Source of the DNA: an uncultured Muribaculaceae bacterium
GTDB taxonomy: Bacteria > Bacillota_I > Bacilli_A > RF39 > UBA660
NCBI GenBank assembly: GCA_964428195.1
Contig: CAYRXC010000002.1
Location: 1-59,708 of the forward strand
Length of the DNA: 59,708 bases
Direction: 5' to 3'
The position numbers and the translations under genes are program-made. The stretch's first letter is position 1, and the number at the start of each line of letters is the position of its first letter. Below the pieces are notes generated by a model. The model saw only the letters and a program-made list of their open reading frames with translations, made no database searches and had not been told where the DNA came from. Of this stretch, positions 40,486-54,824 are shown in pieces.

Positions 40486-41691
40486 ATGAATCCAATAGTT
40501 GCGAATGATGAAATGCTTACTATTAAAGAGAGCATTGATAAAGTTCACCAAGAATTAACTAATAAGATGAATGAGATTAATACCAACTTTGACACAGTGG
40601 CATCAAGTTGGAGTAGCTCAAAATCTAAAGTAGTGTTATTGCCTATTGAAGATATAAAAAAGGAAAACACTAGAATACTAGAAAAAATAAAAGAAAAGTC
40701 AGATCAAATAAAAAGTGCGTATGATACCTATCTTAAGGCTCAAGATACTACTATAGTTCAAGTTATAGCATCCCCAAAAGAAGCTGAAAGCGTAGTTCCT
40801 GAGCAAACAGTAGTTCAAAATCCTAATTTAACAAACGAAGAAAAACTACAAGATTTGAAAGCAAGCGGAGAGACAATAGTACCTAGTTTTGAGATGTTGG
40901 AATTTGTTAGAAATAAAGATGGATCTTTTAAAAGACATGGCAACACGGACCTATATCCTGCAAAGATTACTGTCGATGGAAAAACGATTACTTATTTATT
41001 GTATTTAGGAGGAAGAGCTCCGGATGAGCAAATTCCAAAAGATCTTCCAGTATTGATGGCCCTTCATGGAAGTGGAGAAACAAGATCAAATTACAGTTCG
41101 AATTATAGTTCTTCTGAAGCAAGCAGGTCAATAAAAAATACCTTTGGCGGAAACTTTGGAGATCCAAATAATAAAAAAGAAGTAATTGCAATTCTTCCAC
41201 AATTTAGTAAAGGAACATATTATAGAGAAGATACAATGAATGTACTTCATACCCTTTATACAAGAGTAAAAGAATCATATGGGACAAGAGCTGGTTTAGA
41301 TATAAGCGGGTTAAGTATGGGAGGACAGTCGACAATCAAGTATGCGTCAATGTATCCTCAAGATATTTCTACTGCTACAGTTATTGCTGCTGGACCACCA
41401 GAAGGGAATTTTTTACGTTTAGATGAACAGTCCTACGAAAATTTAAAAAAAGTAAAAATGGTTTTTGTTTGTGGCGACCAAGATTCCAAACAATATTCGA
41501 GATCTCTTAATTTGTTGGGGACATTAACTGGAAACTCCACTACAACATATACTATAAACAAAGGAGATCCAATAGATCCGATTTTGAATTCACATTATAA
41601 TAACGGTGGTATTGTTCATATTACTGTTTCTGGAGCGGGACATAACACATGGGATTTGGCATCTCCAGCTGTGGTTTCTAAATACAACTAA
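40486..41691 (+). CDS. Candidate T7SS substrate: N-terminal WXG100/LXG-like helical hairpin fused to an alpha/beta-hydrolase (esterase/lipase-type) domain
   Basis: The N-terminal ~90 aa form a helix-turn-helix with a central SSWSSS turn. The C-terminal domain has LPVLMALHGSGE, the nucleophile elbow GLSMGG, VCGDQDS and GAGHNTW (Ser-Asp-His). There is no signal peptide. It lies directly upstream of essC. Confidence 0.55.
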   Translation: MNPIVANDEMLTIKESIDKVHQELTNKMNEINTNFDTVASSWSSSKSKVVLLPIEDIKKENTRILEKIKEKSDQIKSAYDTYLKAQDTTIVQVIASPKEAESVVPEQTVVQNPNLTNEEKLQDLKASGETIVPSFEMLEFVRNKDGSFKRHGNTDLYPAKITVDGKTITYLLYLGGRAPDEQIPKDLPVLMALHGSGETRSNYSSNYSSSEASRSIKNTFGGNFGDPNNKKEVIAILPQFSKGTYYREDTMNVLHTLYTRVKESYGTRAGLDISGLSMGGQSTIKYASMYPQDISTATVIAAGPPEGNFLRLDEQSYENLKKVKMVFVCGDQDSKQYSRSLNLLGTLTGNSTTTYTINKGDPIDPILNSHYNNGGIVHITVSGAGHNTWDLASPAVVSKYN

Positions 41692-41718
41692 AATTAATTG
41701 CATATGTTTATAAAAGAA

Positions 41719-41727
41719 TGATATAAT
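41719..41727 (+). promoter_or_regulatory. Extended -10 promoter element (TGaTATAAT) upstream of essC
   Basis: Lies 39 nt upstream of the GTG start at 41766. Confidence 0.4.
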
Positions 41728-41765
41728 TAAATAGAATAAAAGGGTTGTTTAAGGATGTGATATAA

Positions 41766-44700
41766 GTGCAATTATTATTGATAAAAAAGGATAAAATAGA
41801 TACTATTAAATTGCCCTCGAATATTTTCGGAAGTTATTGGATTGTTGACAGAATAAGTTCTAAAAAAGGGAACAATCTTATTAACGTATTTGAAGAAAAC
41901 GGAAGATGGAAAATAGTAAGCAATACAGATACAAAAATAATAGAAAGTAGCGGAAACGTAGTAGATTTTGCTTTTTTAACTGAGTATAGTTTTTATTACA
42001 TTCAAACAAAAGAAAAAACAATTTATATATTATATTCTTGTCCTGTTTATGACAAAAGTACTATTAGATTGACTTTTAATAATTTGACTGAGATTAACAT
42101 TGGAAATGAGATGACCAATGAAATTGTTTATAATTTGCAAGTTGTGGGTAAAAAAAACACAAGACTTGTATTTAAGGACAACGTTTGGAAGGTTTATGAT
42201 TTAGAAAGTAAATTTGGAACATACTTGAACAATTTATCAATTAGAGAAGCAACACTTAACAATGGAGACACAATATTTATTATGGGTTTAAAAATTATAT
42301 TATTGGGGAACAGCTTGTTAATAAATAATCCGTTTAATTCTGTATCATATAATCAAAATATTTTTTCTTTGTCAAATCAAGAAGAAGATGACTACATTGA
42401 AACCGAAGATGATGATAACCTAATTGAGTTGTATAAGGAAGAAGACTATTTTTTAAGATCTCCAAGATTTAAAACAATGATTGAAAAAGAAGTTTTGATA
42501 ATAGATCCTCCTCCAACAAAAGAAAACGCCGAGGAAATGCCAATAATGTATGTAATTGGTCCTATGCTATCGATGAGTATGATGTCATTAATGACTGTTT
42601 TTACTTCATTGAATAGATACTTATCTGGAGAAGCTGAGTTTAAAACGGTATTGCCTTCGTTAATCGTTGCTTTTGCAATGATGTTGAGTATGATATTATG
42701 GCCATTGTTAAATAAAAGATATCAAAAAAAGAAAAAACAAGAATATGAAAAAGATAGGCAAAAAAAGTACGGCGGATATATAGATTCAAGAAGAGAACAA
42801 TTAGAAATTATATCTAAAAAGCAAAAGATGATATTAATAGATAATTATTTGCCTTCTGCTGCTTGTGAAAACATTATTCTAAGCAAAAATAGACAATTAT
42901 GGGAAAGAAAAATAGATCAACCCGATTTCTTAGCTACAAGACTTGGAATAGGAAATACTCCTTTAGAAATTGATATTAGATATCCTGAAACACATTTTTC
43001 AATGGATGAGGATAATTTAAAGGATGAATTGAATAGAATGGTTAATGTTTCAAAAGAACTTAAAGATGTTCCGATAAGTATATCTTTTGTTGAAAAAAAC
43101 TATTCTGCAATAATTGGAAAAAGACACATAACAAACCATTTTATGAAGGAAATTCTATTACAATTTGTGAGTTTTCATAGTTATGAAGATTTAAAGTTAG
43201 TATTTTTATTAGATGAAGATTACGAAGAAGAATGGGAGTATGTAAAAACTATACCTCATATTTGGTCTGACGACAAAACAATTAGATATTTTGCAGTTGA
43301 TTATGAAGAAATGAAAGAACTATCTTCTTTAATGGAAAGTGACTTGCAAAATAGACTAACTTCTGAAGGTTCTTCATCAAGAGACTATAAATCTTTTTAC
43401 CCATATTATGTAATAATAACAAATAATTACAAGGTAACAAAAAACATTAAAATATTATCAGATGTATTGAAACAAAAAACAAATTATGGTTATAGTGTCA
43501 TTGTTATAAATGAAACACTATCTAATCTACCAAATGAGTGTACTACTTTTATTAGTATTGATAGCAATAAGGGAGGAGTTTTCGAAAGCGAATTAATTTC
43601 TACAAATCAGAAAGAATTCTTTCTAGACAAATCACCACTTGCAAATTTAAAGAGTAGCTTTTTTGTGGCAGCAAATACGCCAATAAAGCTTTCTAAAGAA
43701 ATGTACTCACTACCTAAAGTTTTTACTTTTTTAGAAATGTTTGAAGTTGGAAAGGTTGAGCAATTAAACTCTTTATATAGATGGAAGACAAACAACTCAA
43801 TTTTATCACTTCAAACTCCTATAGGAATCGATAGCCATGGAATGATTTCAAGGCTTGATGTTCATGAAAAAGCACATGGTCCGCATGGTCTTATTGCTGG
43901 TATGACTGGTTCTGGGAAAAGTGAATTGATAATTTCATACATAGTATCTCTTGCGGTTAACTATCACCCAGATGATGTATCGTTTGTTTTAATAGATTAT
44001 AAAGGTGGATTTTTGGTTGGAGCTTTACAAAATAATGAAACTGGAATTAAACTTCCACACCTAGCAGGTTCTATAACAAACTTGGACACTATTGAAATGA
44101 AAAGATCTTTGCTATCTATTCAAAGTGAACTAAAAAGAAGACAAAGACTATTTAATGAAGTTAGAGAAGAATTGAACGAAAGTACAATGGACATATATAA
44201 ATATCAAAAACTATATCACGAAGGGTTAATTAAGGAACCTATTCCTCACTTGTTAATTATATCTGATGAGTTTGCTGAGTTAAAAACTCAACAATCTGAG
44301 TTCATGGAGCAATTGATTAGCACGGCCCGTATTGGTAGAAGTTTAGGAGTTCACTTAATATTAGCTACACAAAAACCTTCGGGTGTCGTAAACGATCAAA
44401 TTTGGAGTAATAGTAGATTTAAGATATGTTTAAAGGTTCAAGAAAAGTCTGATAGTATGGATGTAATTAAATCTCCAGATGCTGCAAGTTTAACTCATGT
44501 TGGAAGGTATTATTTACAAGTTGGATATAATGAATATTTCTCGATGGGACAGTCAGCGTGGACAGGGGCACAATACATTCCGTCTGATAAAATAATAAAA
44601 GAAGTCGACACTTCTGTTGATTTTGTAAATAACATTGGAATTATAGTAAAAGAAGTAGAAGAACAAAAGAAAAATCAAAAATCTTCTGAGGGAGAACAAT

Positions 44701-46376
44701 TGACTTCAATTGTTAAATATTTGTCTGATTTAGCCAAAAAAGAGAATATTAAAATTAATCAATTGTGGTTAGATAGAATTCCCGAAAAAATATATGTTGA
44801 TAAATTAGCTCAAAAATACAATTATAAAGCTGAAAAAGGAATAATTAATCCAATAATTGGAGAATACGATGATCCTTACAATCAAAGCCAAGGACTATTG
44901 ACATTACCTATTACTGTTGATGGAAATACAATAATATATGGGTCAGCCGATAGCGGAAAAGAATTATTACTTAATAGTTTAATATTTTCAACGATAACGG
45001 AACACACCGTTGAAGAAGTAAATTTTTATATATTAGATTTTGGAACAGAATCACTTAGAATTTTTTCGGAAGCCCCACACGTAGGGGATGTATTATTTGA
45101 AGACAATAATGAAAAAATAATAAATTTATTTAAGACAATTAGAAAAGAAATTACAAATAGGAAGAAATTATTTGCTGATTATTATGGAGATTATCAATAC
45201 TATATACAAAATAGTGGAAAACAAATACCTACCATAATAATAATAATTAATAATTTTGAAACTTTTTCGGAAATTTACACTGCATTTGAAGAAGAGATTC
45301 TTCAATTAACTAGAGAAGGATTAAAATATGGTATAACATTCATATTTACCGTAACAACTTCAAATGCAATAAGATATAAATTAGCAAAAAATTTCAGACA
45401 AAAATTATGCTTACAGCTTAATGACGATAATGATTATTCAAATATTTTTGACAGAGTTAAAGATAAACTCCCTTCAAAAATATATGGAAGAGGTTTGGTG
45501 GAATTATCTACATTGCATGAATTCCAAACGTCATTTGTAAAAGATGTTGAAAACATTAATGATTACATAATAAGCAAGTGCAAGGAGTTAAAAGCAAGTA
45601 GTAAAACATTTGCAAAGAAAGTAATGATATTGCCAGAAAGAGTTACAATGGCAATGATTGCATCAGAAATAAAGGGAATAGATTCACTTCCTTTTGGTAT
45701 AGAAAAAGAAAGTTTGGATATTGCGAAATTTAATTTTGGTTCAAACACAGCAAATCTAATTGTTTCTCAAGATTATGCATCTTCTTCAAAATTTTTAAAT
45801 TCGTTTATAGCTTCATTGCATTTGCAAAATAGTTTCGATGTAATAATACTAGATAATGACGAACTTATTAACAATAAGAATATCCAAGGATTTAATTATT
45901 ATGGTTCTGATTCAAACAAATATTTTGATGAGATGAAGCCTATTATTGAACAACAATATGAAGAATATAAGACAAACAACTTTAGCAAAAAAGTGCTTGA
46001 AAAATATAAGACAAAACTAACAGTAGTTATAGGCTTGGAAAAATTTAAAACAAGATTGGAAGAAGCTAAACAAAAGGAACTTGATGCTTTCTTTAGTAAA
46101 ACACAAGAAATGCAAAAACACGTGTATATATTTGTTGATAATGTTGACAAATTGAAGAAATTAGAATACGATAATTGGTATAGGAGTATGATAGTTAGTA
46201 ACCAAGGAATTTGGTTAGGAAATGGAATTGCTGATCAATTTGCATTAAAACTTGTTAAGGTAGGAAAAGAACTATATCAAGAAATTGGAAATGATTTTGG
46301 ATATTTAGTTATTAGAGGTGTGCCAACACTTGTAAAACTCATTGATGATGAAGAAGGATATGGTGATATTTTATGA
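41766..46376 (+). CDS. essC: Type VII secretion FtsK/SpoIIIE-family ATPase EssC
   Basis: N-terminal FHA-like modules (FGTYLNNLSIREATLNNGDTIFIMGLKI) and two TMs (MYVIGPMLSMSMMSLMTVF; LPSLIVAFAMMLSMILWPL). The D1 ATPase has GLIAGMTGSGKSELI, LLIISDEFAEL, GVHLILATQKPSGVV and RFKICLKV. D2 has a degenerate P-loop, GSADSGKELL. D3 has no P-loop. Confidence 0.9.
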   Translation: MQLLLIKKDKIDTIKLPSNIFGSYWIVDRISSKKGNNLINVFEENGRWKIVSNTDTKIIESSGNVVDFAFLTEYSFYYIQTKEKTIYILYSCPVYDKSTIRLTFNNLTEINIGNEMTNEIVYNLQVVGKKNTRLVFKDNVWKVYDLESKFGTYLNNLSIREATLNNGDTIFIMGLKIILLGNSLLINNPFNSVSYNQNIFSLSNQEEDDYIETEDDDNLIELYKEEDYFLRSPRFKTMIEKEVLIIDPPPTKENAEEMPIMYVIGPMLSMSMMSLMTVFTSLNRYLSGEAEFKTVLPSLIVAFAMMLSMILWPLLNKRYQKKKKQEYEKDRQKKYGGYIDSRREQLEIISKKQKMILIDNYLPSAACENIILSKNRQLWERKIDQPDFLATRLGIGNTPLEIDIRYPETHFSMDEDNLKDELNRMVNVSKELKDVPISISFVEKNYSAIIGKRHITNHFMKEILLQFVSFHSYEDLKLVFLLDEDYEEEWEYVKTIPHIWSDDKTIRYFAVDYEEMKELSSLMESDLQNRLTSEGSSSRDYKSFYPYYVIITNNYKVTKNIKILSDVLKQKTNYGYSVIVINETLSNLPNECTTFISIDSNKGGVFESELISTNQKEFFLDKSPLANLKSSFFVAANTPIKLSKEMYSLPKVFTFLEMFEVGKVEQLNSLYRWKTNNSILSLQTPIGIDSHGMISRLDVHEKAHGPHGLIAGMTGSGKSELIISYIVSLAVNYHPDDVSFVLIDYKGGFLVGALQNNETGIKLPHLAGSITNLDTIEMKRSLLSIQSELKRRQRLFNEVREELNESTMDIYKYQKLYHEGLIKEPIPHLLIISDEFAELKTQQSEFMEQLISTARIGRSLGVHLILATQKPSGVVNDQIWSNSRFKICLKVQEKSDSMDVIKSPDAASLTHVGRYYLQVGYNEYFSMGQSAWTGAQYIPSDKIIKEVDTSVDFVNNIGIIVKEVEEQKKNQKSSEGEQLTSIVKYLSDLAKKENIKINQLWLDRIPEKIYVDKLAQKYNYKAEKGIINPIIGEYDDPYNQSQGLLTLPITVDGNTIIYGSADSGKELLLNSLIFSTITEHTVEEVNFYILDFGTESLRIFSEAPHVGDVLFEDNNEKIINLFKTIRKEITNRKKLFADYYGDYQYYIQNSGKQIPTIIIIINNFETFSEIYTAFEEEILQLTREGLKYGITFIFTVTTSNAIRYKLAKNFRQKLCLQLNDDNDYSNIFDRVKDKLPSKIYGRGLVELSTLHEFQTSFVKDVENINDYIISKCKELKASSKTFAKKVMILPERVTMAMIASEIKGIDSLPFGIEKESLDIAKFNFGSNTANLIVSQDYASSSKFLNSFIASLHLQNSFDVIILDNDELINNKNIQGFNYYGSDSNKYFDEMKPIIEQQYEEYKTNNFSKKVLEKYKTKLTVVIGLEKFKTRLEEAKQKELDAFFSKTQEMQKHVYIFVDNVDKLKKLEYDNWYRSMIVSNQGIWLGNGIADQFALKLVKVGKELYQEIGNDFGYLVIRGVPTLVKLIDDEEGYGDIL

Positions 46377-46621
46377 ACAAAGTTTATGTAATATTATATG
46401 TTCCAGTTATTGGAGAAAAATATGAGATATTTTTACCAATAAGCAAAAAAATTGGAATAATACGAAAACTATTGACCAAAGCAATTAATGAACTATCTGA
46501 TGGGGCATTTCCTATTAAAGACTCTCTCCTATACGACAAAAAAGATGGCAGTAGATACGATTTAAACATCACGTTAAAGGAATCAAATATAAGAAATGGT
46601 TCTGAAATAATATTAATTTAG
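46373..46621 (+). CDS. esaB: YukD/EsaB-like ubiquitin-fold T7SS protein
   Basis: 82 aa and beta-grasp-like (YEIFLPISKKIGIIRKLL...LKESNIRNGSEIILI). It is translationally coupled to the essC stop. Confidence 0.65.
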   Translation: MNKVYVILYVPVIGEKYEIFLPISKKIGIIRKLLTKAINELSDGAFPIKDSLLYDKKDGSRYDLNITLKESNIRNGSEIILI

Positions 46622-46637
46622 TAAGGAGGTGAAAAAT

Positions 46638-46937
46638 ATGAATATTATGTTAAACCCAGAAGTACTTAATGGAGAAGTAAACGAAATCAACACTTTAAAA
46701 AATGAAGCAACAGCATTGATTAATGATACTCTTAAAGCAATTAACGAATTGACTCAACAAGGTGGTGGACTAGCAAGCCCAGAAGGAGCAAAATTGGCAG
46801 GTACTTATGGCCAAAAAGCTACAAAAATGATGACAGATTTAGAAGAGTTTGTTAATGAATATGTAACAGCGTTAAATAATGCTGCAAATAATTTAATTAA
46901 TGCAAGTTCTACAAATGCTGGAAATATTCAAGCTTAA
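46638..46937 (+). CDS. WXG100-family-like small secreted protein lacking the Trp (turn = QQGGGLASPEG)
   Basis: 99 aa and all-helical. The N-terminal IMLNPEVLNGEVNEI parallels the EsxA I(K)MSPEEI start. The RBS AAGGAGG (46623-46629) makes the ATG at 46638 the likely start. Confidence 0.55.
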   Translation: MNIMLNPEVLNGEVNEINTLKNEATALINDTLKAINELTQQGGGLASPEGAKLAGTYGQKATKMMTDLEEFVNEYVTALNNAANNLINASSTNAGNIQA

Positions 46938-46973
46938 TTAACTAATTTATTTTTTAAAAAAGGAGGAAAATTC

Positions 46974-47249
46974 ATGGGTGAATTATTAAATGTTAACATT
47001 GAAAGTATCAATGCTAAAAAAACATATATTGATACAAAAAATGGAGAATTATCTACAAAATTACAAGCTATTAATTCAAAGTTTGAAGGAATTCAAGGTA
47101 TGAGTAGTAGAGATGTAATAAAAATAAGAGAAAAATATGCTGATGCAAAACAATCTCAAAAAGAATTGACTGAAGCTGTAACAGCAATTTCTGCTTATTT
47201 ATCAAGCGTAGCTAGAAACTACGAAGAAGCTCAAACTCAAGTTAACTAG
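46974..47249 (+). CDS. WXG100-family-like small protein (turn = FEGIQG)
   Basis: 91 aa helical hairpin with the RBS AAAGGAGG. It is paired with the preceding gene, like esxA/esxB. Confidence 0.5.
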   Translation: MGELLNVNIESINAKKTYIDTKNGELSTKLQAINSKFEGIQGMSSRDVIKIREKYADAKQSQKELTEAVTAISAYLSSVARNYEEAQTQVN

Positions 47250-47275
47250 GTCTCTATTTATAGAGACTCTTTCTA
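47249..47275 (+). terminator. Rho-independent terminator (weak T tract)
   Basis: 8-bp stem GGTCTCTA-TTTA-TAGAGACT followed by CTTTCT. Confidence 0.5.
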
Positions 47276-47361
47276 ATTGTTTGTCTTATTTTACAAATAA
47301 TTAGAAATAGTTTTTATATAGAAGTGTATAATAATTAGCGATTATTGAAAGAGTGGTGTGA

Positions 47362-50300
47362 ATGAAAAAGGGATTGTTGAAGGTAAATTTCGAGAGCGTT
47401 AAAAGTTATTCAGCCAATTTGAACTCTGTTTCAAACGAAGTAACTAACAGCTATAAGGCTCCATCGGGAATGCAAATTGTAACACAGGGGCTAGTGCCTA
47501 CTTATTTTGATAAATTAAATCAATTTGTAGAAAAGCATGGTAATTATATTATGGAATTATCAAAAGCTATTGATGTATATCATGGTGAGTTAACTGCAAT
47601 AGAAGGATATTCAACACAAGAGACAGCTCAAGAACCTGCCTCAGAAGAACCGGTAGTTGGAGGAGGATCTCCTCATGGCGGAAATCATAATCCGTCTTTT
47701 GAGCCAGAGCTTACGGAAATTGAAGTATCTCCTGGAATAGAAGTAAATTTAGATTTTGGTAGTCTTCCTATAAATGCATCTATGGATCAAATTATGGGAA
47801 TAATTGCCGCTTATATAGCACAATTTGGACTAACTTTACCAGATTTGTTTTCAGGTAATTACGAGCACCTATTGTCTCAAATAATAGGATATTCACCTAA
47901 TACACCAACATTGTTAGCAATACTTACTCAATTGAATGAATTATTAATGCAAGCATATTTAAAAGGAATGATGAATAATCCTGGTGCACCTCAAATGTTC
48001 CAACCAATCAAATCATTCTTGAGATATTTTGCTCAATTTTTAGATGTTGATTTAAACAAATTAATGATAGATCCTCAATATGCTTTGGCTATTAAAATGG
48101 CACTACAAGACCATAGAACATCTTTAATTAATCTAAATAATATAAATCAAGAGACTGCTCTTGAGGTTCAAAGCAAATTGAATGATATGATTTATGGTGA
48201 TGGCAAAGGAAATTATAATAAGCATGGTGTAGATGATGTAACAATAAATATGTTAAAAGACTATCTGGCTTCTGTTGCTAAGAAAAATAATATTTCTTTA
48301 GAAAGCCTATTAGGAGAGGAAAAATATGCTAACATTGCCAAAACTGCTTTAGATGAATTTCTTAAATTTGCGTTACTAGGAAAAACAGAAGGACTAGCTT
48401 TTGCAGGAATACCGGAAGACGCAGAAAACTTAGGACCTGAAGAAGAAGAAAAAGTAGTTATCCCTGATAGTGAATTTAAAGAATCGGGATACAGTGTTCT
48501 TTCCGCTGATGCAAACACAGATCAAGTCAATAGTACCCTTGATGCATTGCTAGAAAAATACGGGTTAACTTTAGAAGAATTGTATTCTGGAGAACACAAT
48601 GATGTTTTAAATCAAGTACTTAACAATGCTTCTCACACAACAACATTTATAGTAACTGCAAATCAACTTGATGATTTAAATCTTCAAGCTTATTTAAATG
48701 GATTAAATAATGGTGATTCTGTACCGAAACATTTTGTATCTGTTGAATCATACTTATCTTATTTGGCAAAAACAGAAGGAGTATCTGTTGAAGAGTTATT
48801 AACTGATCCAAAGTACTCTGCTTTAGTAAAAGACTCTTTATATCAATATAGAGAATCATTAATATCGTTGAACAATTTATCTGAAAAAGACTCTGTTTCG
48901 ATTCAACAATCAATCAATCAATTCTTATTAAGTGATGATAAGAGCAATTATAATATAGATGGTGCTACTGATAAAATGCTTGAAGAATATTTAAGATCAG
49001 TTGCTGAAAAAAACAATATATCACTTGAAGATATGCTTACTCAAGAAAAATATGCTGATTTGACAAAAGAATCTCTTAAAGAGTTTATGAATTTTTCTTT
49101 GAATGGAGAAGAAAGTGATTTACCAGTTGCTAACATTGTTGAGCAAATAACTGAAATAGCTACCGAAAATAACACAACTCCGGAACAAATTTTAAATGGA
49201 GAAAATAATGAAGCATTAACTGAAGTAATTACATCAACTGAAAATCCTGCTGAAGTTGCTGAAGTTATAAACAATGTAGATGAAAATGCATTACAAAATT
49301 ATGTAAATGAAATAGTTAATGAAGGTAAGCATCCAGAAGTAAATAACAATCCTGTTATTAAGGAAGTAATTAGGACAATAGTTGTAAATAAGGAATACAT
49401 TAAAGGAAATACAAATGAAATAATAATTCCAGAAGTTGAAGAACCAAAACTAACTGAAGAACCAATTGTTATTGAAGAACTACCAAAAGAAGAATTAAAA
49501 GAAATCTTAACTAATGAAAATTATGCTCCTCAAATAAAAGAGGTTGTAAATAAAACTAATTCCTTTAACTGGGCTAGTTTATTCCCATTAGCAGGATTAG
49601 GTTTAATTCCTTTAATTGCAGTGGTTAGAAAAAAAAATAAAGAAAATCCTCAAAGAGAATCTTATGTATTCTCAGATGAAGAAACAAAACCTATTGTTGA
49701 CTCAAATTTTAAGTATTTTGCTGAATCAAATATAGTTACAGAGGAATCATTATTGGATGGTTCAAATTCCGAACTATTATCCATATATTTAAGTCAATTA
49801 GAAAGTTTGAGCGCAGTCTTGAATGTTTTATCCATAATGAAAGATCAACATCTTCAAAAATATTTATTTGAATTGTATAATTTTAAATACGAGCATGTAT
49901 GGAGCAGTAAATCATTAATTATAAAGATATTATTTAATGATTTAACTAATATTGCTTTTAAACAAGGCATAGAAATCAATACATTGTTATCTAATTCAAA
50001 TTATGTTGTTTGGGTTAAAACATCGATTGTAGATATTATGAAGGCATATTCAAAATACGAAGGGGACATAAACTCTAGCGGAGGGTTTAAGCTATTTTTA
50101 AATAGTGTTTTGGGTAAATCAATATTAGTAAACGAAGCAAATTTAAATGTATTAAAAATGTTTTTCGAATTAAATGCTAAAAAAGCAAATCTTGATTTTG
50201 ATTCATTTGTAAATCAATTATCAGAATATGATAATAAATTAATTATCTTTGCAATCATTAGATATGGAGAAGGAAGTAAACCTTACTCTTTTGGGTTTTT

Positions 50301-52311
50301 AGATTCTTTAAATGATGATTCTTCAAATTCTTCAGATGGAGGATTTATACCAAAAGAAACTGGAAAAGAAAGAATATTTGATGAATCTGGATATAATGCT
50401 TTATTATTTAATTCAAGTGAAGAACTAATCGAAAAAGCATTAGCTGCTATTGCAAAAAATTATAATACTAGTGTGAAAGATTTATACACAATAAGCAATG
50501 AAAACATTTTTACTTTATTATTAAATAAGTCAACCAACTTAATTTTAACTTTATATCTATTATTAAAATTAGATTCTGATAGACTTCAAAAATACTTACA
50601 TGCATTATATACAAAATCTACTGAAAATAAGTTTTTATTGATTGTACTAAAATATTTAGAGTATTTAGCTAAATCCGAGAATACAACGCTTAATGCTTTG
50701 TTGACAAAAGGAGAATATGCTAAATTGATAATTGAATCATTAGCAGATTTCAAAAAATCAGTGACTAGCATTATTTCTTTAGCTAAAAAGGATGGAACAA
50801 CTCTAAACGAAGAAATTAATGATTTGTTTTTTATGGAAGATACTAGTAAATATGAAATAGATAAAATATCTATTGAATTGATAAAAGGTATGTTGTCTAG
50901 TTTGGGTAAAGCAAAAAATATTGGATTAAATGCATTATTAGATATAAAAAATATTTCTTTATTAAAAGAGCTAATGGAAAAGATTGTAAATACTCTACTT
51001 TTTATAAAGGAAACAAATAATGAAAATTCTAATGAAGAAAAAAAATTAACACCATTAAACCTTAGAGCTATGGATGAAAAAAAATCTTCTGAAACAAAAA
51101 ACAACGTAGATATAAGCAAATTAGTAGATGGAAGCAATTATGATTTATTAAATAAATACTTTGATGAAACAGATGATATATTTAAAATAATAGATGTCTT
51201 ATTATCAATGGATGAAATCATTATGCAAAAGTATCTTAATGAGTTAAACAAAAAATCGACAAAAAATAAATTCTTGTTGTATATTTTAAAGTTGCTTCAA
51301 AATTATGCGTTAACTGAAGCTACAACAATAGAATATGTTTTATCAAATGCAGTATATGCATCAAAATTGAAAGTGTTAATTTCTGAGTTTTCAAAATCAA
51401 TAAAGAATTTTGAAGCATTATCTAAGATAGATGCATCAGAATTGAGTAAAGAGATGAATACTTTGATGAACATAGATGATACTTCTTCTTATGGGATAGA
51501 TAAAGTCACATTGAATTTAATAAAAGAGTTATTAACTAATTCTACAAAGACTGATAATCTTGATTTGAATTCATTGAGTGATCCAAAGAATGCCAACGTA
51601 TTGAAAAAGTTAATGCAAAAGATTATTAATGATATTACAACATCTTTAACATTTAATACAAAAAAAGTTGATTTTTCAAAAAATAATTTTAATAAAGATG
51701 AAGTGGTGAATGCGCTTAGAGAGGCATTTGGAAATTCTAATTATTCAAATTCTCCATTGTTAAGTAAGATAAAAAGCTACTTTGAAATAATGATAAGTGA
51801 ATCAGGAATTAGTTTTGAAGAATATATTTTTGGACAAGAGTTTTCGAATTTTATTAAGATTAACTTTGAAAATACAAATATTATGTCATTTATTTATGAA
51901 TACATGGAATCAAATATAGATTATGATTTTGATGTTAACAAAAAAATTATTGACTTGGCAGTAAAAAACAATTTGAAGTATGATGAATTGAGGTCAAAAG
52001 GTGGATTAAGCTTTGTTGTACAAAGTATTTTAAAAGAAAATAATATTATTTATTCTTTAGAAACTTTGGTTACTTTTGAGAAAGATAATATTTCTGAAGC
52101 ATTGTTAGAGTTAAATTCAATAAAAGAAAATACAAATATAAATAATTTGTTTGATTACATTGATAAAAACTTGAAAAAACCAAGTAGTTTACCTATAGAA
52201 GAATATATTAATGAAAACAAGAAAACAATACTATTGTTCTTGGTTAAGGTATTGTTAATGCTTCTAATTCTGTTACTATTGATGAATAAAGAAGAAAAAG
52301 AGGTGAAGTAA
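47362..52311 (+). CDS. 1649-aa T7SS-locus protein: WXG/LXG-like N-terminus, five to six ~180-aa helical repeat modules, one internal and one C-terminal TM helix
   Basis: The N-terminal ~85 aa form a helical hairpin (LLKVNFESVKSY...). The internal TM is WASLFPLAGLGLIPLIAVV followed by RKKNK (49570-49641). The C-terminal TM is ILLFLVKVLLMLLILLLLM followed by NKEEKEVK (about 52225-52308). No family is recognised. Confidence 0.7.
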   Translation: MKKGLLKVNFESVKSYSANLNSVSNEVTNSYKAPSGMQIVTQGLVPTYFDKLNQFVEKHGNYIMELSKAIDVYHGELTAIEGYSTQETAQEPASEEPVVGGGSPHGGNHNPSFEPELTEIEVSPGIEVNLDFGSLPINASMDQIMGIIAAYIAQFGLTLPDLFSGNYEHLLSQIIGYSPNTPTLLAILTQLNELLMQAYLKGMMNNPGAPQMFQPIKSFLRYFAQFLDVDLNKLMIDPQYALAIKMALQDHRTSLINLNNINQETALEVQSKLNDMIYGDGKGNYNKHGVDDVTINMLKDYLASVAKKNNISLESLLGEEKYANIAKTALDEFLKFALLGKTEGLAFAGIPEDAENLGPEEEEKVVIPDSEFKESGYSVLSADANTDQVNSTLDALLEKYGLTLEELYSGEHNDVLNQVLNNASHTTTFIVTANQLDDLNLQAYLNGLNNGDSVPKHFVSVESYLSYLAKTEGVSVEELLTDPKYSALVKDSLYQYRESLISLNNLSEKDSVSIQQSINQFLLSDDKSNYNIDGATDKMLEEYLRSVAEKNNISLEDMLTQEKYADLTKESLKEFMNFSLNGEESDLPVANIVEQITEIATENNTTPEQILNGENNEALTEVITSTENPAEVAEVINNVDENALQNYVNEIVNEGKHPEVNNNPVIKEVIRTIVVNKEYIKGNTNEIIIPEVEEPKLTEEPIVIEELPKEELKEILTNENYAPQIKEVVNKTNSFNWASLFPLAGLGLIPLIAVVRKKNKENPQRESYVFSDEETKPIVDSNFKYFAESNIVTEESLLDGSNSELLSIYLSQLESLSAVLNVLSIMKDQHLQKYLFELYNFKYEHVWSSKSLIIKILFNDLTNIAFKQGIEINTLLSNSNYVVWVKTSIVDIMKAYSKYEGDINSSGGFKLFLNSVLGKSILVNEANLNVLKMFFELNAKKANLDFDSFVNQLSEYDNKLIIFAIIRYGEGSKPYSFGFLDSLNDDSSNSSDGGFIPKETGKERIFDESGYNALLFNSSEELIEKALAAIAKNYNTSVKDLYTISNENIFTLLLNKSTNLILTLYLLLKLDSDRLQKYLHALYTKSTENKFLLIVLKYLEYLAKSENTTLNALLTKGEYAKLIIESLADFKKSVTSIISLAKKDGTTLNEEINDLFFMEDTSKYEIDKISIELIKGMLSSLGKAKNIGLNALLDIKNISLLKELMEKIVNTLLFIKETNNENSNEEKKLTPLNLRAMDEKKSSETKNNVDISKLVDGSNYDLLNKYFDETDDIFKIIDVLLSMDEIIMQKYLNELNKKSTKNKFLLYILKLLQNYALTEATTIEYVLSNAVYASKLKVLISEFSKSIKNFEALSKIDASELSKEMNTLMNIDDTSSYGIDKVTLNLIKELLTNSTKTDNLDLNSLSDPKNANVLKKLMQKIINDITTSLTFNTKKVDFSKNNFNKDEVVNALREAFGNSNYSNSPLLSKIKSYFEIMISESGISFEEYIFGQEFSNFIKINFENTNIMSFIYEYMESNIDYDFDVNKKIIDLAVKNNLKYDELRSKGGLSFVVQSILKENNIIYSLETLVTFEKDNISEALLELNSIKENTNINNLFDYIDKNLKKPSSLPIEEYINENKKTILLFLVKVLLMLLILLLLMNKEEKEVK
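47830..49095 (+). repeat. Protein-level repeat modules R1 (47830-48369) and R2 (48565-49095) of the giant protein
   Basis: The modules are colinear. Matching blocks: LTLPDLFSGNYEHLL / LTLEELYSGEHNDVL; QAYLKGMMN / QAYLNGLNN; DLNKLMIDPQYALAIK / SVEELLTDPKYSALVK; SLINLNN / SLISLNN; MLKDYLASVAKKNNISLESLLGEEKYANIAKTALDEFLKF / MLEEYLRSVAEKNNISLEDMLTQEKYADLTKESLKEFMNF. Confidence 0.8.
49728..51636 (+). repeat. Protein-level repeat modules R3-R5 (post-TM half) of the giant protein
   Basis: R4 (about 50464-50995) and R5 (about 51106-51636) are colinear. Matching blocks: LQKYLHALYTKSTENKFLLIVLKYL / MQKYLNELNKKSTKNKFLLYILKLL; TTLNALLTKGEYAKL / TTIEYVLSNAVYASKL; DTSKYEIDKISIELIKGML / DTSSYGIDKVTLNLIKELL. 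R3 (about 49728-50280) is more divergent (LQKYLFELYNFKYEH...). Confidence 0.7.
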
Positions 52312-52620
52312 ATGGAAAATTTAAGTTGTGATTTTGAAATAATTAATGATGCTTTAGTTTCATTAATCAATTCAGCAAATGCTGTAGTAGAGCAAGCAAC
52401 AGTTTTAAAAGGTATTGTAGAATCAGTTGATTTGGGTTGGATTGACAAGATTGAAGGGTCTGCTGATTTATATAAAAATGAAACACTATTGATTATCAAT
52501 GATTTGGCTGTAAATTTAGAATCTTCAAATACTCTGATTAAAAGTATTCAACAATCTATGGATTTGTATAAAGAAAATGAAGCTGCGGGTGTTACTAGTA
52601 TTAACAACGTAAGTTTGTAA
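52312..52620 (+). CDS. WXG100-like small helical protein (turn = DLGWIDKIEG)
   Basis: 102 aa helical hairpin. The ATG directly abuts the stop of the giant gene (TAAATG). Confidence 0.5.
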   Translation: MENLSCDFEIINDALVSLINSANAVVEQATVLKGIVESVDLGWIDKIEGSADLYKNETLLIINDLAVNLESSNTLIKSIQQSMDLYKENEAAGVTSINNVSL

Positions 52621-52631
52621 GGAGGATTTTT

Positions 52632-54065
52632 ATGAACGGTGCCGAATATGATAAATATTTAAACGCAATTAAAGGAACTAACTTTTCTGCTTTAAAAACT
52701 TTGATTAGTAACATTGAACAAGTAGAAACAAATGTAGTAAATAATTTGAATAAAGAAATTGAATGGGAAGGTGATGTTCGAGAAGCATTAAGAGCTAAAA
52801 TAGACTCTGTACTTCCTTCTTTTAGAAGTTTTAAGACTAATGAAACTGCTAATATAAACAACATTATTGATTTATCTACAGAATTGATGAACAAGATATT
52901 AGAATACAAAAAATTATTTTCTGAAATTACGAGTTTAAATAATGATTTGAATAGAGCAAAAGCAAATGCAGAAACTATCGAAGTTGAATTTTCCGGAAGA
53001 GGCGGAAAAATTGATGATTCTAGTGCAACTTCGAGCGAAAGATTTACAACAAAAAGGCAAAAAAGCAATGCGGAAATTAATAGGATTCAATCTCAAATTA
53101 ATAGCAAAACAAAAATGATTGGTGACACAAAAATTGAAATAGAGTCATTAATTACTAAATTAAAAAGCGTAGAATTTGGAACATTATTTGTTAATAGTAC
53201 TGTTGCATCTACGGCAAGTTCTTCTTCAGAAACAGTTATTGCAGATGTATCTTTAGATGGATATAAACTTGATGCAACTTTACTTACAAGTATACCAGCC
53301 AGCGAATATGATAATTATTTTAGAAATTCTTTAGAAAAACCTATTCAGAATAATATAAATTATTTATCTATGACTTTACATAATTTAAATGATCAAAGAC
53401 ATTTGGCTTCTATTGTTTTAACAAATATGCCTGGAACGACTGACCCAAATCAATTGGTTGCAATAGATATGGCAAGACTAGCGCATTCAAGATTAACTCA
53501 ACAAATTGAGGATACAGAGAAGTCACTTGAGCAACATCAAAAATTACTTGATGATTATAAAGCGGCAAATAAATCAAAGTTTTGGGCATGGGAAAGCCAT
53601 GGTGAAATTAAAAATCTTGCACTTGAAAGAGATGCAGCTACGAGCCCAGAGGAGAAAGCTGAATATAATAGGAAAATATCCGAAGCTGTCGAAAGATTTA
53701 ATAGTGGAATTGATAGTTCAAATTTAATTCCAATAGGAGATGTAGCTTTACCTTTTATGGCAAGTTCCTTAGAAGGTCAAAACATTCTTGGACCAGAGGT
53801 TGGTTATTCTGAAGCAAGTAAAGAAACAGAAGTATTAAGTTTATTTACAGAAAGCTTATATAATTCTCCTAGATCAGATACTGAAATGATTCCTACATAT
53901 AATGATAAACAAGAAATAACAGGATATACTATAATCGATCAAAGACTTGAGAGTATTGGTCAAGAATATAAATTAAACAAGACAGATACGGGATATGATT
54001 TAGTTATAGGTGGAAAAGAACCTTTACATTATGATTTACCTCAACTTGAAAATAGTAATAATTAA
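52632..54065 (+). CDS. LXG/WXG-like N-terminal domain protein with unassigned C-terminal region (candidate T7SS substrate/effector)
   Basis: A WXG motif is present (EIEWEGDVREALRAKI) within an N-terminal helical domain, followed by coiled coil. The C-terminal ~230 aa are unrecognised. No TM and no signal peptide. The RBS is AAGGAGG. Confidence 0.5.
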   Translation: MNGAEYDKYLNAIKGTNFSALKTLISNIEQVETNVVNNLNKEIEWEGDVREALRAKIDSVLPSFRSFKTNETANINNIIDLSTELMNKILEYKKLFSEITSLNNDLNRAKANAETIEVEFSGRGGKIDDSSATSSERFTTKRQKSNAEINRIQSQINSKTKMIGDTKIEIESLITKLKSVEFGTLFVNSTVASTASSSSETVIADVSLDGYKLDATLLTSIPASEYDNYFRNSLEKPIQNNINYLSMTLHNLNDQRHLASIVLTNMPGTTDPNQLVAIDMARLAHSRLTQQIEDTEKSLEQHQKLLDDYKAANKSKFWAWESHGEIKNLALERDAATSPEEKAEYNRKISEAVERFNSGIDSSNLIPIGDVALPFMASSLEGQNILGPEVGYSEASKETEVLSLFTESLYNSPRSDTEMIPTYNDKQEITGYTIIDQRLESIGQEYKLNKTDTGYDLVIGGKEPLHYDLPQLENSNN

Positions 54066-54072
54066 TAATATA

Positions 54073-54106
54073 AAAGTTCTTATTATATATGAGAACTTTT
54101 TTTCTT
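54073..54106 (+). terminator. Rho-independent terminator
   Basis: AAAGTTCT / AGAACTTT stem (11-nt loop) followed by TTTTCTT. Confidence 0.55.
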
Positions 54107-54112
54107 GAAAAA

Positions 54113-54121
54113 TGATATAAA
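54113..54121 (+). promoter_or_regulatory. Extended -10-like element (TGaTATAAA)
   Basis: Lies 35 nt upstream of the 54156 ATG. The RBS is AGGAGG. Confidence 0.35.
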
Positions 54122-54155
54122 TTATGATAGTATTAACATAGGAGGATAGTGTGAT

Positions 54156-54824
54156 ATGACAAAAATAATGGATTATTTGGTTGATAATTATATTTATGTT
54201 GCAGCTATATCGGGTTTTTTAATTATCGTTCTTATTGGATTTTTAGTGAAAACTAATAAATCAAAGAAAACCAATAAATCTGCAAAAGAAAAATCAAAAG
54301 AATTAGAAATTGAAAACAAAAATGATGAAAATCAAAATGTACAAGAAAAAAATACAAGTAAAGATTTTGAAATTACACCTAATGGAGTTGATTCTGGATT
54401 TATAAAAAATGAAGAAGAAAATATAATTCCAGAAATAAATAGTGTTGTTGAAGAAGCAACAAATTCAATGGAGTCTGAAACAAAAACAAATGTAGATGTT
54501 TCTGTTGAAGAAATTAATATTATTCCTGAAATAGAAAATCTTTCTCAGGAAAAGTCAAATTCTGAGAATAATAATCAAGAAAATGATGTTAGCTTATACA
54601 ACGAGTCCATAGTTGAACCATCAAATCAAAAATTTCAAGTAGTACTAGATGATGAGGTTAGTGAGCCAACAGTCAAGGAAGCTGAAAAATTCGATCTAGA
54701 TGACACAATTTCTCTAAATAAAAGCTTGCTTGATGATACTGTTGATATTGTTGATTTTTCTGAACTTAATAAATTTGAACCAAATGATGAAGTACCAAAT
54801 TCAATTAGTAATAACAACCAATAA
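54156..54824 (+). CDS. Single-pass membrane protein with long acidic, N/E/S-rich tail
   Basis: N-terminal TM YIYVAAISGFLIIVLIGFLV, followed by KTNKSKKTNKSAKEK and a low-complexity acidic region. A short motif occurs twice: NIIPEINS and NIIPEIEN. Confidence 0.5.
   Translation: MTKIMDYLVDNYIYVAAISGFLIIVLIGFLVKTNKSKKTNKSAKEKSKELEIENKNDENQNVQEKNTSKDFEITPNGVDSGFIKNEEENIIPEINSVVEEATNSMESETKTNVDVSVEEINIIPEIENLSQEKSNSENNNQENDVSLYNESIVEPSNQKFQVVLDDEVSEPTVKEAEKFDLDDTISLNKSLLDDTVDIVDFSELNKFEPNDEVPNSISNNNQ

Follow-up and report, generated by a model that had tools for sequence, protein, structure and literature searches.

What does a type VII secretion system (T7SS) do with a neighbouring gene for a helical protein of 1649 amino acids (aa), and does this protein belong to the machine or to what the machine exports? 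The gene lies at positions 47362-52311 (+) of a stretch of 59,708 nucleotides (nt) of contig CAYRXC010000002.1 (assembly GCA_964428195.1), referred to here as the window. The locus reads g401, EssC, g82, g102a, g91, the big gene, g102b, g477, g222 and then rplM-rpsI. A sequence-only reading had offered two alternatives for the product, a stand-in for the EsaA-like extracellular stalk or a giant membrane-inserted T7SS substrate; the latter fits the results best and the former was not upheld. The 1649-aa protein is a lineage-specific, greatly expanded, membrane-anchored member of an unnamed T7SS-associated family. Our preferred answer, which we hold at about even confidence, is that the gene encodes an accessory T7SS substrate-type or surface protein turned membrane-anchored, and not an EsaA-like core stalk, because of its accessory cassette-like distribution, the WXG100-like gene pairs beside it, its WXG100-like head, fast divergence, variable module number and exclusion of cysteine.

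Family members and their genomic contexts

A profile of 15 module copies was run with HMMER at full sensitivity over 1.84 billion representative proteins. At E<=1e-3 the module family comprises 114 proteins, of which 52 reach E<=1e-10, and it forms about 110 clusters at 50% identity. Apart from the orthologues of the big protein, nearly all members are 300-650 aa long and have no hydrophobic segment. Their common plan consists of an N-terminal helical region of ~85 aa, a Gly/Pro-rich linker that begins around residue 85-110, and then one to four module or sub-module copies, which corresponds to the first ~600 residues of the 1649-aa protein. One member of 992 aa (P0007) combines this plan with a single C-terminal hydrophobic helix. 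All named members are annotated as 'hypothetical protein' and come from metagenome-assembled genomes labelled Bacilli, Mycoplasmatota or Tenericutes bacterium (P0004 cluster). The family was previously unnamed and is associated with T7SS loci in uncultured Bacillota of gut and rumen. In a metagenome protein of 1150 aa from ENA (P0006) the submotif described below has expanded to an extreme degree, with about ten tandem units of ~82 aa (YLEQIAKENGITLEELLTDPKYKDLL...), each with a short Gly-rich hydrophobic stretch.

Six genomic contexts were examined (the window, L004/L005, L006/L007, L008, L009 and L010), and in all six the family member lies beside two ~100-aa WXG100-like genes; EssC and g82 are also present in five. 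A soluble member of 392-522 aa directly follows g82 in L006 and L008 and is itself followed by the two ~100-aa genes, and the 992-aa member of L010 stands after EssC, g82 and two small genes. EssC and g82 of the other lineages with soluble members are 53-56% and 51-67% identical to those of the window, respectively. The context in a spore-former (L009) is an orphan cassette, with a 670-aa member after two WXG100 genes and no EssC within 10 kb. This layout of two WXG100 genes followed by the member is typical of substrates.

The distribution was surveyed in 72 metagenomic loci fetched via the subtype-specific g82, and the count was restricted to the 41 that extend 2 kb or more beyond g82 on its downstream side. 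The module protein is present in 16 of the 41 loci of this EssC/g82 subtype and absent in 25. Its presence follows the identity of g82 to that of the window: three of three loci at 75% or above, 13 of 25 at 46-75%, and none of 13 below 46%. The loci without the family include L025, L027 and L029, whose g82 is closer to that of the window than in many family-positive loci, and in L035 the module gene is located further downstream, behind unrelated genes. Among the surveyed loci, giants anchored by transmembrane (TM) helices were found only in the window's own lineage (L013-L015). The subtype has a further large membrane protein, also uncharacterised, in L036-L042 (e.g. L038 10250-16000), where a soluble module protein (487-508 aa) and two ~95-aa open reading frames (ORFs) precede a protein of ~900-1100 aa with hydrophobic segments near residues 232 and 301.

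Sequence conservation

The big protein evolves much faster than EssC. Between the window and the syntenic contig L003, EssC is 82% and g82 84% identical, and the L13, S9, Abi_2 and HtrA proteins 79-90%, against 51% for the big protein, 63% for g102a, 51% for g91, 44% for g102b, 39% for g477 and 37% for g401. Conservation is distributed unevenly along the big protein. The segment preceding the internal hydrophobic helix (TM1) together with the helix itself is the most conserved stretch (75-89% between orthologues), and TM1 is more conserved than the C-terminal helix (TM2). Module M3 is the most conserved globular part, with 73-79% between orthologues and 54-55% to the distant orthologues P0004 and P0005. 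The other modules are 43-72% and the linkers 9-30% identical; the Gly/Pro-rich linker at aa 86-114 is the least conserved segment (11-21% between orthologues).

Helical modules

The protein is composed of five homologous helical modules of ~215-245 aa, a half module and probably a degenerate sixth module, all of which are listed in Table 1. Whole-protein self-BLAST gave the trivial self match only and was replaced by tile-BLAST, in which tiles were compared with the whole protein; profiles of each region, aligned across three orthologues, were compared by hhalign. Using the repeat numbering of the sequence-only reading, tile-BLAST relates R1 to R2 (E 1e-34 at 34-39% identity), R2 to R4 (1e-19), R4 to R5 (1e-25) and R3 to R5 (9e-8), and the hhalign comparisons reveal that M1, M2, M4 and M5 are mutually homologous with E-values from 1e-16 to 1e-51. 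The modules have been duplicated internally. Homologous, colinear repeats had been noticed before, but the true module measures ~215-245 aa and not ~180 aa: R1 (aa 157-336) and R2 (aa 402-578) each form the core of a ~244-aa module, at aa 115-358 and 359-602, respectively. The half module M2h proposed earlier is present at aa 603-720 and is also found in P0004 and P0005, but only its first ~55 aa match the start of a module and the remainder is unique. The C-terminal region M6 (5-sequence alignment) matches the 15-copy module profile A2 with an hhalign E-value of 3.3e-5 (prob 72%), and from this comparison it is probably a degenerate module.

The repeated ~20-aa submotif that had been noted was recovered in 13 copies by a loose regular expression, against 0.3 expected (2000 shuffles, maximum 3). 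It has the form 'x-I-[ST]-L-E-x-L-L-x4-Y-A', is of helix-turn-helix type and occurs three times per full module. The AlphaFold2 (AF2) model of M2 contains 13 helices, with a predicted local distance difference test score (pLDDT) of 89.4 and a predicted TM-score (pTM) of 0.88, and Foldseek found no match to it among PDB folds (best E 1.6, TM-score ~0.2). No Pfam or NCBIfam match was found for the 1649-aa protein, the PDB sequences searched with the profile of 15 module copies gave nothing, and neither an enzymatic family nor a pore-forming fold was detected in the modules by Pfam, NCBIfam and Foldseek against PDB. The module is confidently predicted by the modelling to have an all-helical fold not yet seen in solved structures, and the earlier remark that no described family could be recognised agrees with the negative outcome of the Pfam, NCBIfam, PDB sequence and PDB fold searches.

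N-terminal head

The head was modelled with AF2 from a 48-sequence family alignment (pLDDT 83.5), with helices at residues 10-30 and 48-81. Its top PDB match in Foldseek is Staphylococcus aureus EsxA (prob 0.98, TM-score 0.54-0.60). Further matches include proteins of Streptococcus agalactiae, Bacillus anthracis and Geobacillus, almost all of them T7SS WXG100 proteins, with non-significant E-values, as expected for a small hairpin. A weak but specific match links the head profile, over its full length, to aligned g91 orthologues (hhalign E 1.6e-5, prob 79%; controls E 0.1-0.2). Against PDB sequences the head profile gave an end-to-end alignment to B. anthracis EsxB (E 0.2-0.4), and the matches in this search are dominated by designed coiled coils, which denotes compositional bias. 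The loop of the hairpin reads KAPSGMQIVTQGLVPTYF, without W-x-G, and the family consensus at this place is F..L...[G/D]L. Together the models support a head that is WXG100-like in fold and not a member of the WXG100 family. The WXG-like head of the sequence-only reading is thereby retained as a hairpin fold with a weak profile match, but not as a family member, having neither the WXG motif nor a Pfam match.

Hydrophobic helices, integrity and topology

The big gene is one intact ORF started by ATG. A Kyte-Doolittle scan detected exactly two hydrophobic segments of TM length, at aa 737-755 and aa 1622-1641, and no N-terminal hydrophobic signal. Both helices, the mid-ORF one followed by RKKNK and the terminal one followed by NKEEKEVK, and the lack of a signal peptide had been described correctly before. 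TM1 (LFPLAGLGLIPLI) is moderately hydrophobic and Gly/Pro-rich, and is unrelated in sequence to TM2. TM2 lies near the C-terminus and a signal peptide is missing, yet the 1649-aa protein is not a simple tail-anchored protein, because a second hydrophobic helix sits mid-protein. A sortase-type sorting signal formed by TM1 and the RKKNK cluster was considered and rejected, as the element is located mid-ORF, is preceded by NSFNWA and not by an LPXTG-type motif, and has no NCBIfam match at E<=0.1.

Full-length orthologues with retained gene order were found in L001 (P0002, 66% identity) and L002 (P0003, 51%; genome contig L003). Two distant orthologues are shorter (P0004, 1376 aa; P0005 of locus L004/L005, 1239 aa, 42% identity over the longest BLAST alignment) and have fewer modules; both retain the head, the half module, TM1, M3, M6 and the C-terminal helix. 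The single ORF and both hydrophobic helices are kept in orthologues from five independent assemblies. The frameshift or assembly artefact considered earlier can be dismissed, because five independent orthologue lineages keep the single ORF. No split two-gene version occurs among the 114 matches of the module profile, in which P0034 is a frameshifted fragment. The suggested fusion of two tail-anchored proteins is not supported, given that none of the lineages yielded a split version, the second unit lacks a head and the two helices are unrelated.

In five orthologues the 15 residues after TM1 contain four to six Lys/Arg residues, compared with two to three before it. By the positive-inside rule, this cluster on the C-terminal side of TM1 favours a predicted topology with the N-terminal ~736 residues outside and the following region in the cytoplasm. 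An N-in topology with the second array outside, as proposed before, conflicts with this cluster, which is conserved in all five orthologues. The charges flanking TM2 are ambiguous, the tail being slightly more positive in three of the five. The 1649-aa protein contains no cysteine, against a window background of 0.75% (~12 expected), and the orthologues have none or one; cysteine exclusion is characteristic of exported Firmicute proteins.

Proposed export and comparison with known systems

We infer that the protein pairs with g102a and g91, is exported by EssC, adopts the topology given below and acts at the cell surface. The head would pair with the WXG100-like g102a and g91 in a helical-bundle pre-secretion complex, as LXG proteins do with Lap1 and Lap2. 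EssC would recognise this complex and export the N-terminal array, and the protein would remain tethered to the producer membrane through its hydrophobic helices with the N-terminal ~736 residues outside. The modules would most likely form a non-catalytic, elongated surface array that serves in spacing, adhesion or contact rather than as a toxin, because they have no enzymatic signature, vary in number and evolve fast. The boldest reading, in which the T7SS ATPase exports the ~736-residue array via the head with TM1 as a stop-transfer anchor, or exports the whole protein so that TM1 enters the membrane of another cell, is a tentative proposal that we rate as rather unlikely.

Published systems offer partial parallels. 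LXG, Lap1 and Lap2 form a pre-secretion complex (PMC9600955), and candidate T7SS substrates in all variants adjoin one or two small WXG100-related Lap genes (PMC11217815). The LXG-Lap1-Lap2 complex of T7SSb (Lap1 DUF3130/TIGR04197, Lap2 DUF3958) is the closest mechanistic template. It resembles the present case in the N-terminal helical targeting-type domain; in the two small WXG100-like genes immediately upstream (g102a and g91), a pairing that recurs in L001-L010; in the location in or near the EssC locus with orphan cassettes elsewhere; in fast evolution and accessory distribution; and in a faint TIGR04197 match of g91 (E 0.025). However, the head measures ~85 aa instead of ~200 aa and matches neither Pfam LXG (PF04740) nor WXG100, the body is made of non-enzymatic helical repeats without a C-terminal toxin domain or a recognisable immunity gene, and the window lineage adds two hydrophobic helices. 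As to the WXG100 proteins themselves (EsxA/EsxB; PF06013/TIGR03930), the head is likewise a two-helix hairpin whose best structural matches are EsxA/EsxB and which aligns end to end, but it lacks the W-x-G loop motif, stays below all curated thresholds and starts a 1649-aa protein, whereas WXG100 proteins are stand-alone and ~100 aa long.

Two further types of large T7SS protein were compared. EsaA/YueB, a core membrane protein of T7SSb and a phage receptor, is also large, mostly helical, membrane-anchored and encoded in T7SS loci, and an envelope-spanning role is conceivable for the big protein too. The big protein differs in having no match to the EsaA/YueB/YhgE-Pip models (Pfam, NCBIfam, PDB sequences) or to their fold; in lacking an N-terminal TM helix and several C-terminal TM helices around an ectodomain, its only helices being those at 737-755 and 1622-1641, while EsaA has about six TM segments; and in having soluble paralogous relatives, presence in 16 of 41 loci and poor conservation compared with EssC. 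TsdI, TseI and TsjI (T7SSd, T7SSe and T7SSj; PMC11217815) share a length of ~1650 aa, a C-terminal TM helix and a variant T7SS locus. The TsdI-type proteins have been proposed to span the envelope, and TsdI carries Ig-like beta domains as well as a Sec signal peptide (PMC11217815), while the big protein has no signal peptide and consists of a WXG100-like head and all-alpha modules. TspA of S. aureus and TelE of Streptococcus gallolyticus resemble the big protein as T7SS substrates with membrane-entering hydrophobic or Gly-rich helices; both differ in their much smaller size and in their one toxin domain, for which a cognate immunity protein exists, and neither is known to contain repeat arrays.

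Weighing the alternatives

Several observations count against a substrate-type protein. Neither WXG100 nor LXG of Pfam matches any of the 48 family heads, WXG100 not even at E<=1, and the curated T7SS substrate models of Pfam and NCBIfam do not match the 1649-aa protein. The head contains no WXG, LXG, YxxxD/E or FxxxD motif, and inspection by eye of the head, g91 and g102a revealed no convincing YxxxD/E or FxxxD export motif. The conservation of TM1 and M3 comes close to that of EssC, and this would suit a role in contact with the machine as well. The stretch between g91 and the big gene contains a terminator-like hairpin and a TATAAT box, so that co-expression with the partner genes is not guaranteed. 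The topology signals conflict, since the two helices both look N-out/C-in, which is impossible for a consecutive pair, and the exclusion of cysteine extends to the C-terminal half, which would be cytoplasmic under the N-out topology of TM1. Furthermore, we know of no T7SS that inserts membrane proteins into the membrane of its producer, and the anchoring step is without precedent to our knowledge.

With no EssA, EssB or EsaA family match in the window locus (40486-54824; Pfam and NCBIfam), the big protein could instead be a structural or scaffold component of a reduced T7SS that lacks these three, anchored by EssC via TM1-M3 and acting as a helical stalk or conduit. Its position after EssC, g82 and two small genes is conserved throughout the lineage, TM1 (79-89%) and M3 (73-79%) nearly match the conservation of EssC (82%), and its size and all-helical nature recall EsaA; an envelope-spanning role was suggested by Garrett et al. 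for TsdI of ~1650 aa (PMC11217815). We nevertheless consider such a component improbable. The family is absent in 25 of 41 loci of the same subtype, including L025, L027 and L029, the relatives in sister lineages are soluble proteins of 360-650 aa that could not be a membrane stalk, and one relative belongs to the orphan cassette with no EssC within 10 kb. The overall divergence is fast (51% against 82% for EssC), the number of modules varies, and there is no similarity to EsaA/YueB in sequence or fold. The same results speak against the EsaA stand-in of the sequence-only reading.

The exclusion of cysteine from both halves would be accommodated if the whole protein were exported as a contact-dependent effector bridging two membranes, held in the producer by TM2 as in P0007, with TM1 displayed ~870 residues out and inserting into a target-cell or host membrane in the manner of a fusion peptide. 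The modules flanking TM1 are homologous and so expected in the same compartment, P0007 shows that an architecture of head, modules and C-terminal anchor exists, and TM1 is less hydrophobic than TM2 (Kyte-Doolittle peaks 2.05 and 3.26), Gly/Pro-rich and better conserved. Hydrophobic regions that insert into membranes are known from T7SS substrates; TspA and TelE, both toxins, reportedly have hydrophobic helices that enter membranes. On the other hand, the strong Lys/Arg cluster after TM1 resembles a classical stop-transfer or cytoplasmic flank, the high conservation of M3 is unexpected for an exposed stalk, and the Foldseek search revealed neither toxicity nor a pore-forming fold. The big gene has no immunity-like neighbour, for instance a gene for a multi-TM protein, g102b and g477 being soluble and without an immunity-family match, and we regard a bridging effector as quite unlikely. 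Least probable in our view is an ordinary bitopic or two-pass protein inserted via Sec/YidC independently of the T7SS, N-in and with the second array outside, whose placement in the locus would reflect regulation or chance. It would agree with two hydrophobic helices of TM length, with a possible own promoter after the terminator-like hairpin and with the lack of a match between the head and curated T7SS substrate models, but the charge bias at TM1 is the reverse of what an N-in signal anchor would show, and the head fold is WXG100-like. Moreover, family members without TM helices still occur in T7SS loci beside WXG100-like pairs, and the linkage to EssC/g82 is conserved across lineages in which EssC is only 53-56% identical.

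Neighbouring genes of the locus

The coordinates of the big gene's segments and of the genes around it are given in Table 1.

Table 1. Segments of the 1649-aa protein and neighbouring T7SS genes in the window.
Feature	Residues	Position (nt)	Strand	Basis and remarks
EssC ATPase with FHA domain		41766..46376	+	TIGR03928 T7_EssCb_Firm 1010 bits (cut-off 778); Pfam FtsK_SpoIIIE, FHA
g82, 82 aa, in the position of EsaB/YukD		46373..46621	+	overlaps essC stop
g102a, 102-aa WXG100/PE-like small helical protein		46629..46937	+	Pfam PE E 0.0013, WXG100 E 0.035
g91, 91-aa WXG100-like protein		46974..47249	+	Pfam WXG100 24.3 bits, below 27.3 cut-off
Head, helix-loop-helix hairpin	1-85	47362..47616	+	AF2, Foldseek, hhalign
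Gly/Pro-rich linker	86-114	47617..47703	+	window richest in Gly and Pro starts at aa 92
M1	115-358	47704..48435	+	hhalign vs M2 E 1.2e-51; three submotif copies
M2	359-602	48436..49167	+	tile-BLAST, hhalign; AF2 model
M2h, half module	603-720	49168..49521	+	hhalign vs M2/M3/M5 E 3e-6 to 3e-5 over ~50-55 aa
Pre-TM segment, TM1 (WASLFPLAGLGLIPLIAVV) and RKKNK cluster	TM1 737-755	49522..49641	+	Kyte-Doolittle peak 2.05; TM1 helix at nt 49570-49626
M3, diverged module copy	786-975	49717..50286	+	hhalign vs M5 E 1.1e-12
M4	1003-1215	50368..51006	+	hhalign vs M5 3.1e-36, vs M2 5.9e-26
M5	1248-1430	51103..51651	+	tile-BLAST, hhalign; missing in orthologue P0005
M6, C-terminal helical region	1431-1620	51652..52221	+	submotif present once, at aa 1483; region also conserved in P0004 and P0005
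TM2 (TILLFLVKVLLMLLILLLLM), 8-aa tail NKEEKEVK and stop codon	TM2 1622-1641	52225..52311	+	Kyte-Doolittle peak 3.26; helix at nt 52225-52284
g102b, 102-aa helical protein		52312..52620	+	abuts big gene; no family match

EssC is the predicted secretion motor of the locus. The g82 protein is conserved to the same degree as EssC in close relatives (84-90%) and at 51-67% elsewhere in the subtype. Its identity as YukD/EsaB could not be confirmed, as it has no Pfam match even at E<=1 and a 7-sequence profile found no PDB-sequence match. Loci L006, L008 and L010, with the same EssC(FHA)/g82 subtype, are likewise without recognisable EssA, EssB and EsaA, and EssC alone among the L006 gene products has a hydrophobic segment. 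This subtype matches none of the T7SSa-j layouts described in 2024 (PMC11217815).

The two small genes upstream of the big gene are paralogues (hhalign 9.8e-10), and besides the faint TIGR04197 match g91 has an NCBIfam match to ESAT6_2 (E 7.5e-6). From these similarities, g102a is a candidate targeting partner of the big protein and g91 a candidate Lap-like targeting partner or EsxA equivalent. A terminator-like hairpin is located directly after g91 (47249-47268, free energy -10.2 kcal/mol, z -1.95), and a perfect TATAAT box at ~47326-47331, ~30 nt before the start of the big gene. Because of these two elements, the big gene may have its own promoter or be subject to attenuation relative to the small WXG-like genes. 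At its other end, the TAA stop codon is directly followed by the ATG of g102b, and the last codons of the big gene contain a Shine-Dalgarno sequence, GAGGTG (52300-52320); translational coupling of g102b is therefore expected. The g102b gene also follows the big gene in L001, L003 and L004. An LXG-like gene had been assumed downstream, but family searches gave no WXG100 or LXG support for g477 and g102b.

Two more genes flank this core. The g401 product (40486-41691) has a WXG100-like N-terminus (PF06013 E 1.6e-4, aa 1-110) and an alpha/beta-hydrolase-like C-terminus with GLSMGG and faint polyhydroxybutyrate-depolymerase/esterase matches, and is a candidate T7SS-secreted esterase or lipase effector. 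In the g222 product (54156-54824) an N-terminal TM helix is combined with a low-complexity tail that is long and acidic; conservation with the L004 counterpart (65%) is confined to the first ~49 residues. The protein might be a small membrane component similar to EssA, or else an unrelated protein.

Host and other genes of the window

The window is chromosomal, with ~28% GC and all genes on one strand, and represents a low-GC Bacillota chromosome. Its genes include those for FtsEX (the FtsX extracellular domain being present), CdaA/CdaR, Lgt, WhiA, ParAB, RNase R and tmRNA, and the host probably has a cell wall. By size alone, the 1494-aa ORF is taken to be PolC and the 653- and 944-aa ORFs to be UvrB and UvrA. 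A full-length 5-hydroxymethyldeoxyuridine (5-hmdU) DNA kinase helical domain (PF18723, E 1.8e-99) was observed at 215-1162 in a chromosomal housekeeping context; such kinases are usually linked to phage DNA hypermodification. The L003 contig (CAZKBC010000001.1, 26% GC) is syntenic with the window, including EssC, rplM-rpsI, Abi_2 and HtrA. Its record title, 'uncultured Muribaculaceae', is doubtful, and the contig was probably mis-binned or mislabelled.

Implications

If true, either export route would make this the first T7SS to build a membrane-anchored surface or bridging protein, and one with a module fold not seen before. The module family adds a non-toxin, repeat-array class to the likely T7SS substrates, and the big protein raises the question whether a T7SS can deliver a very large protein and anchor it in a membrane.

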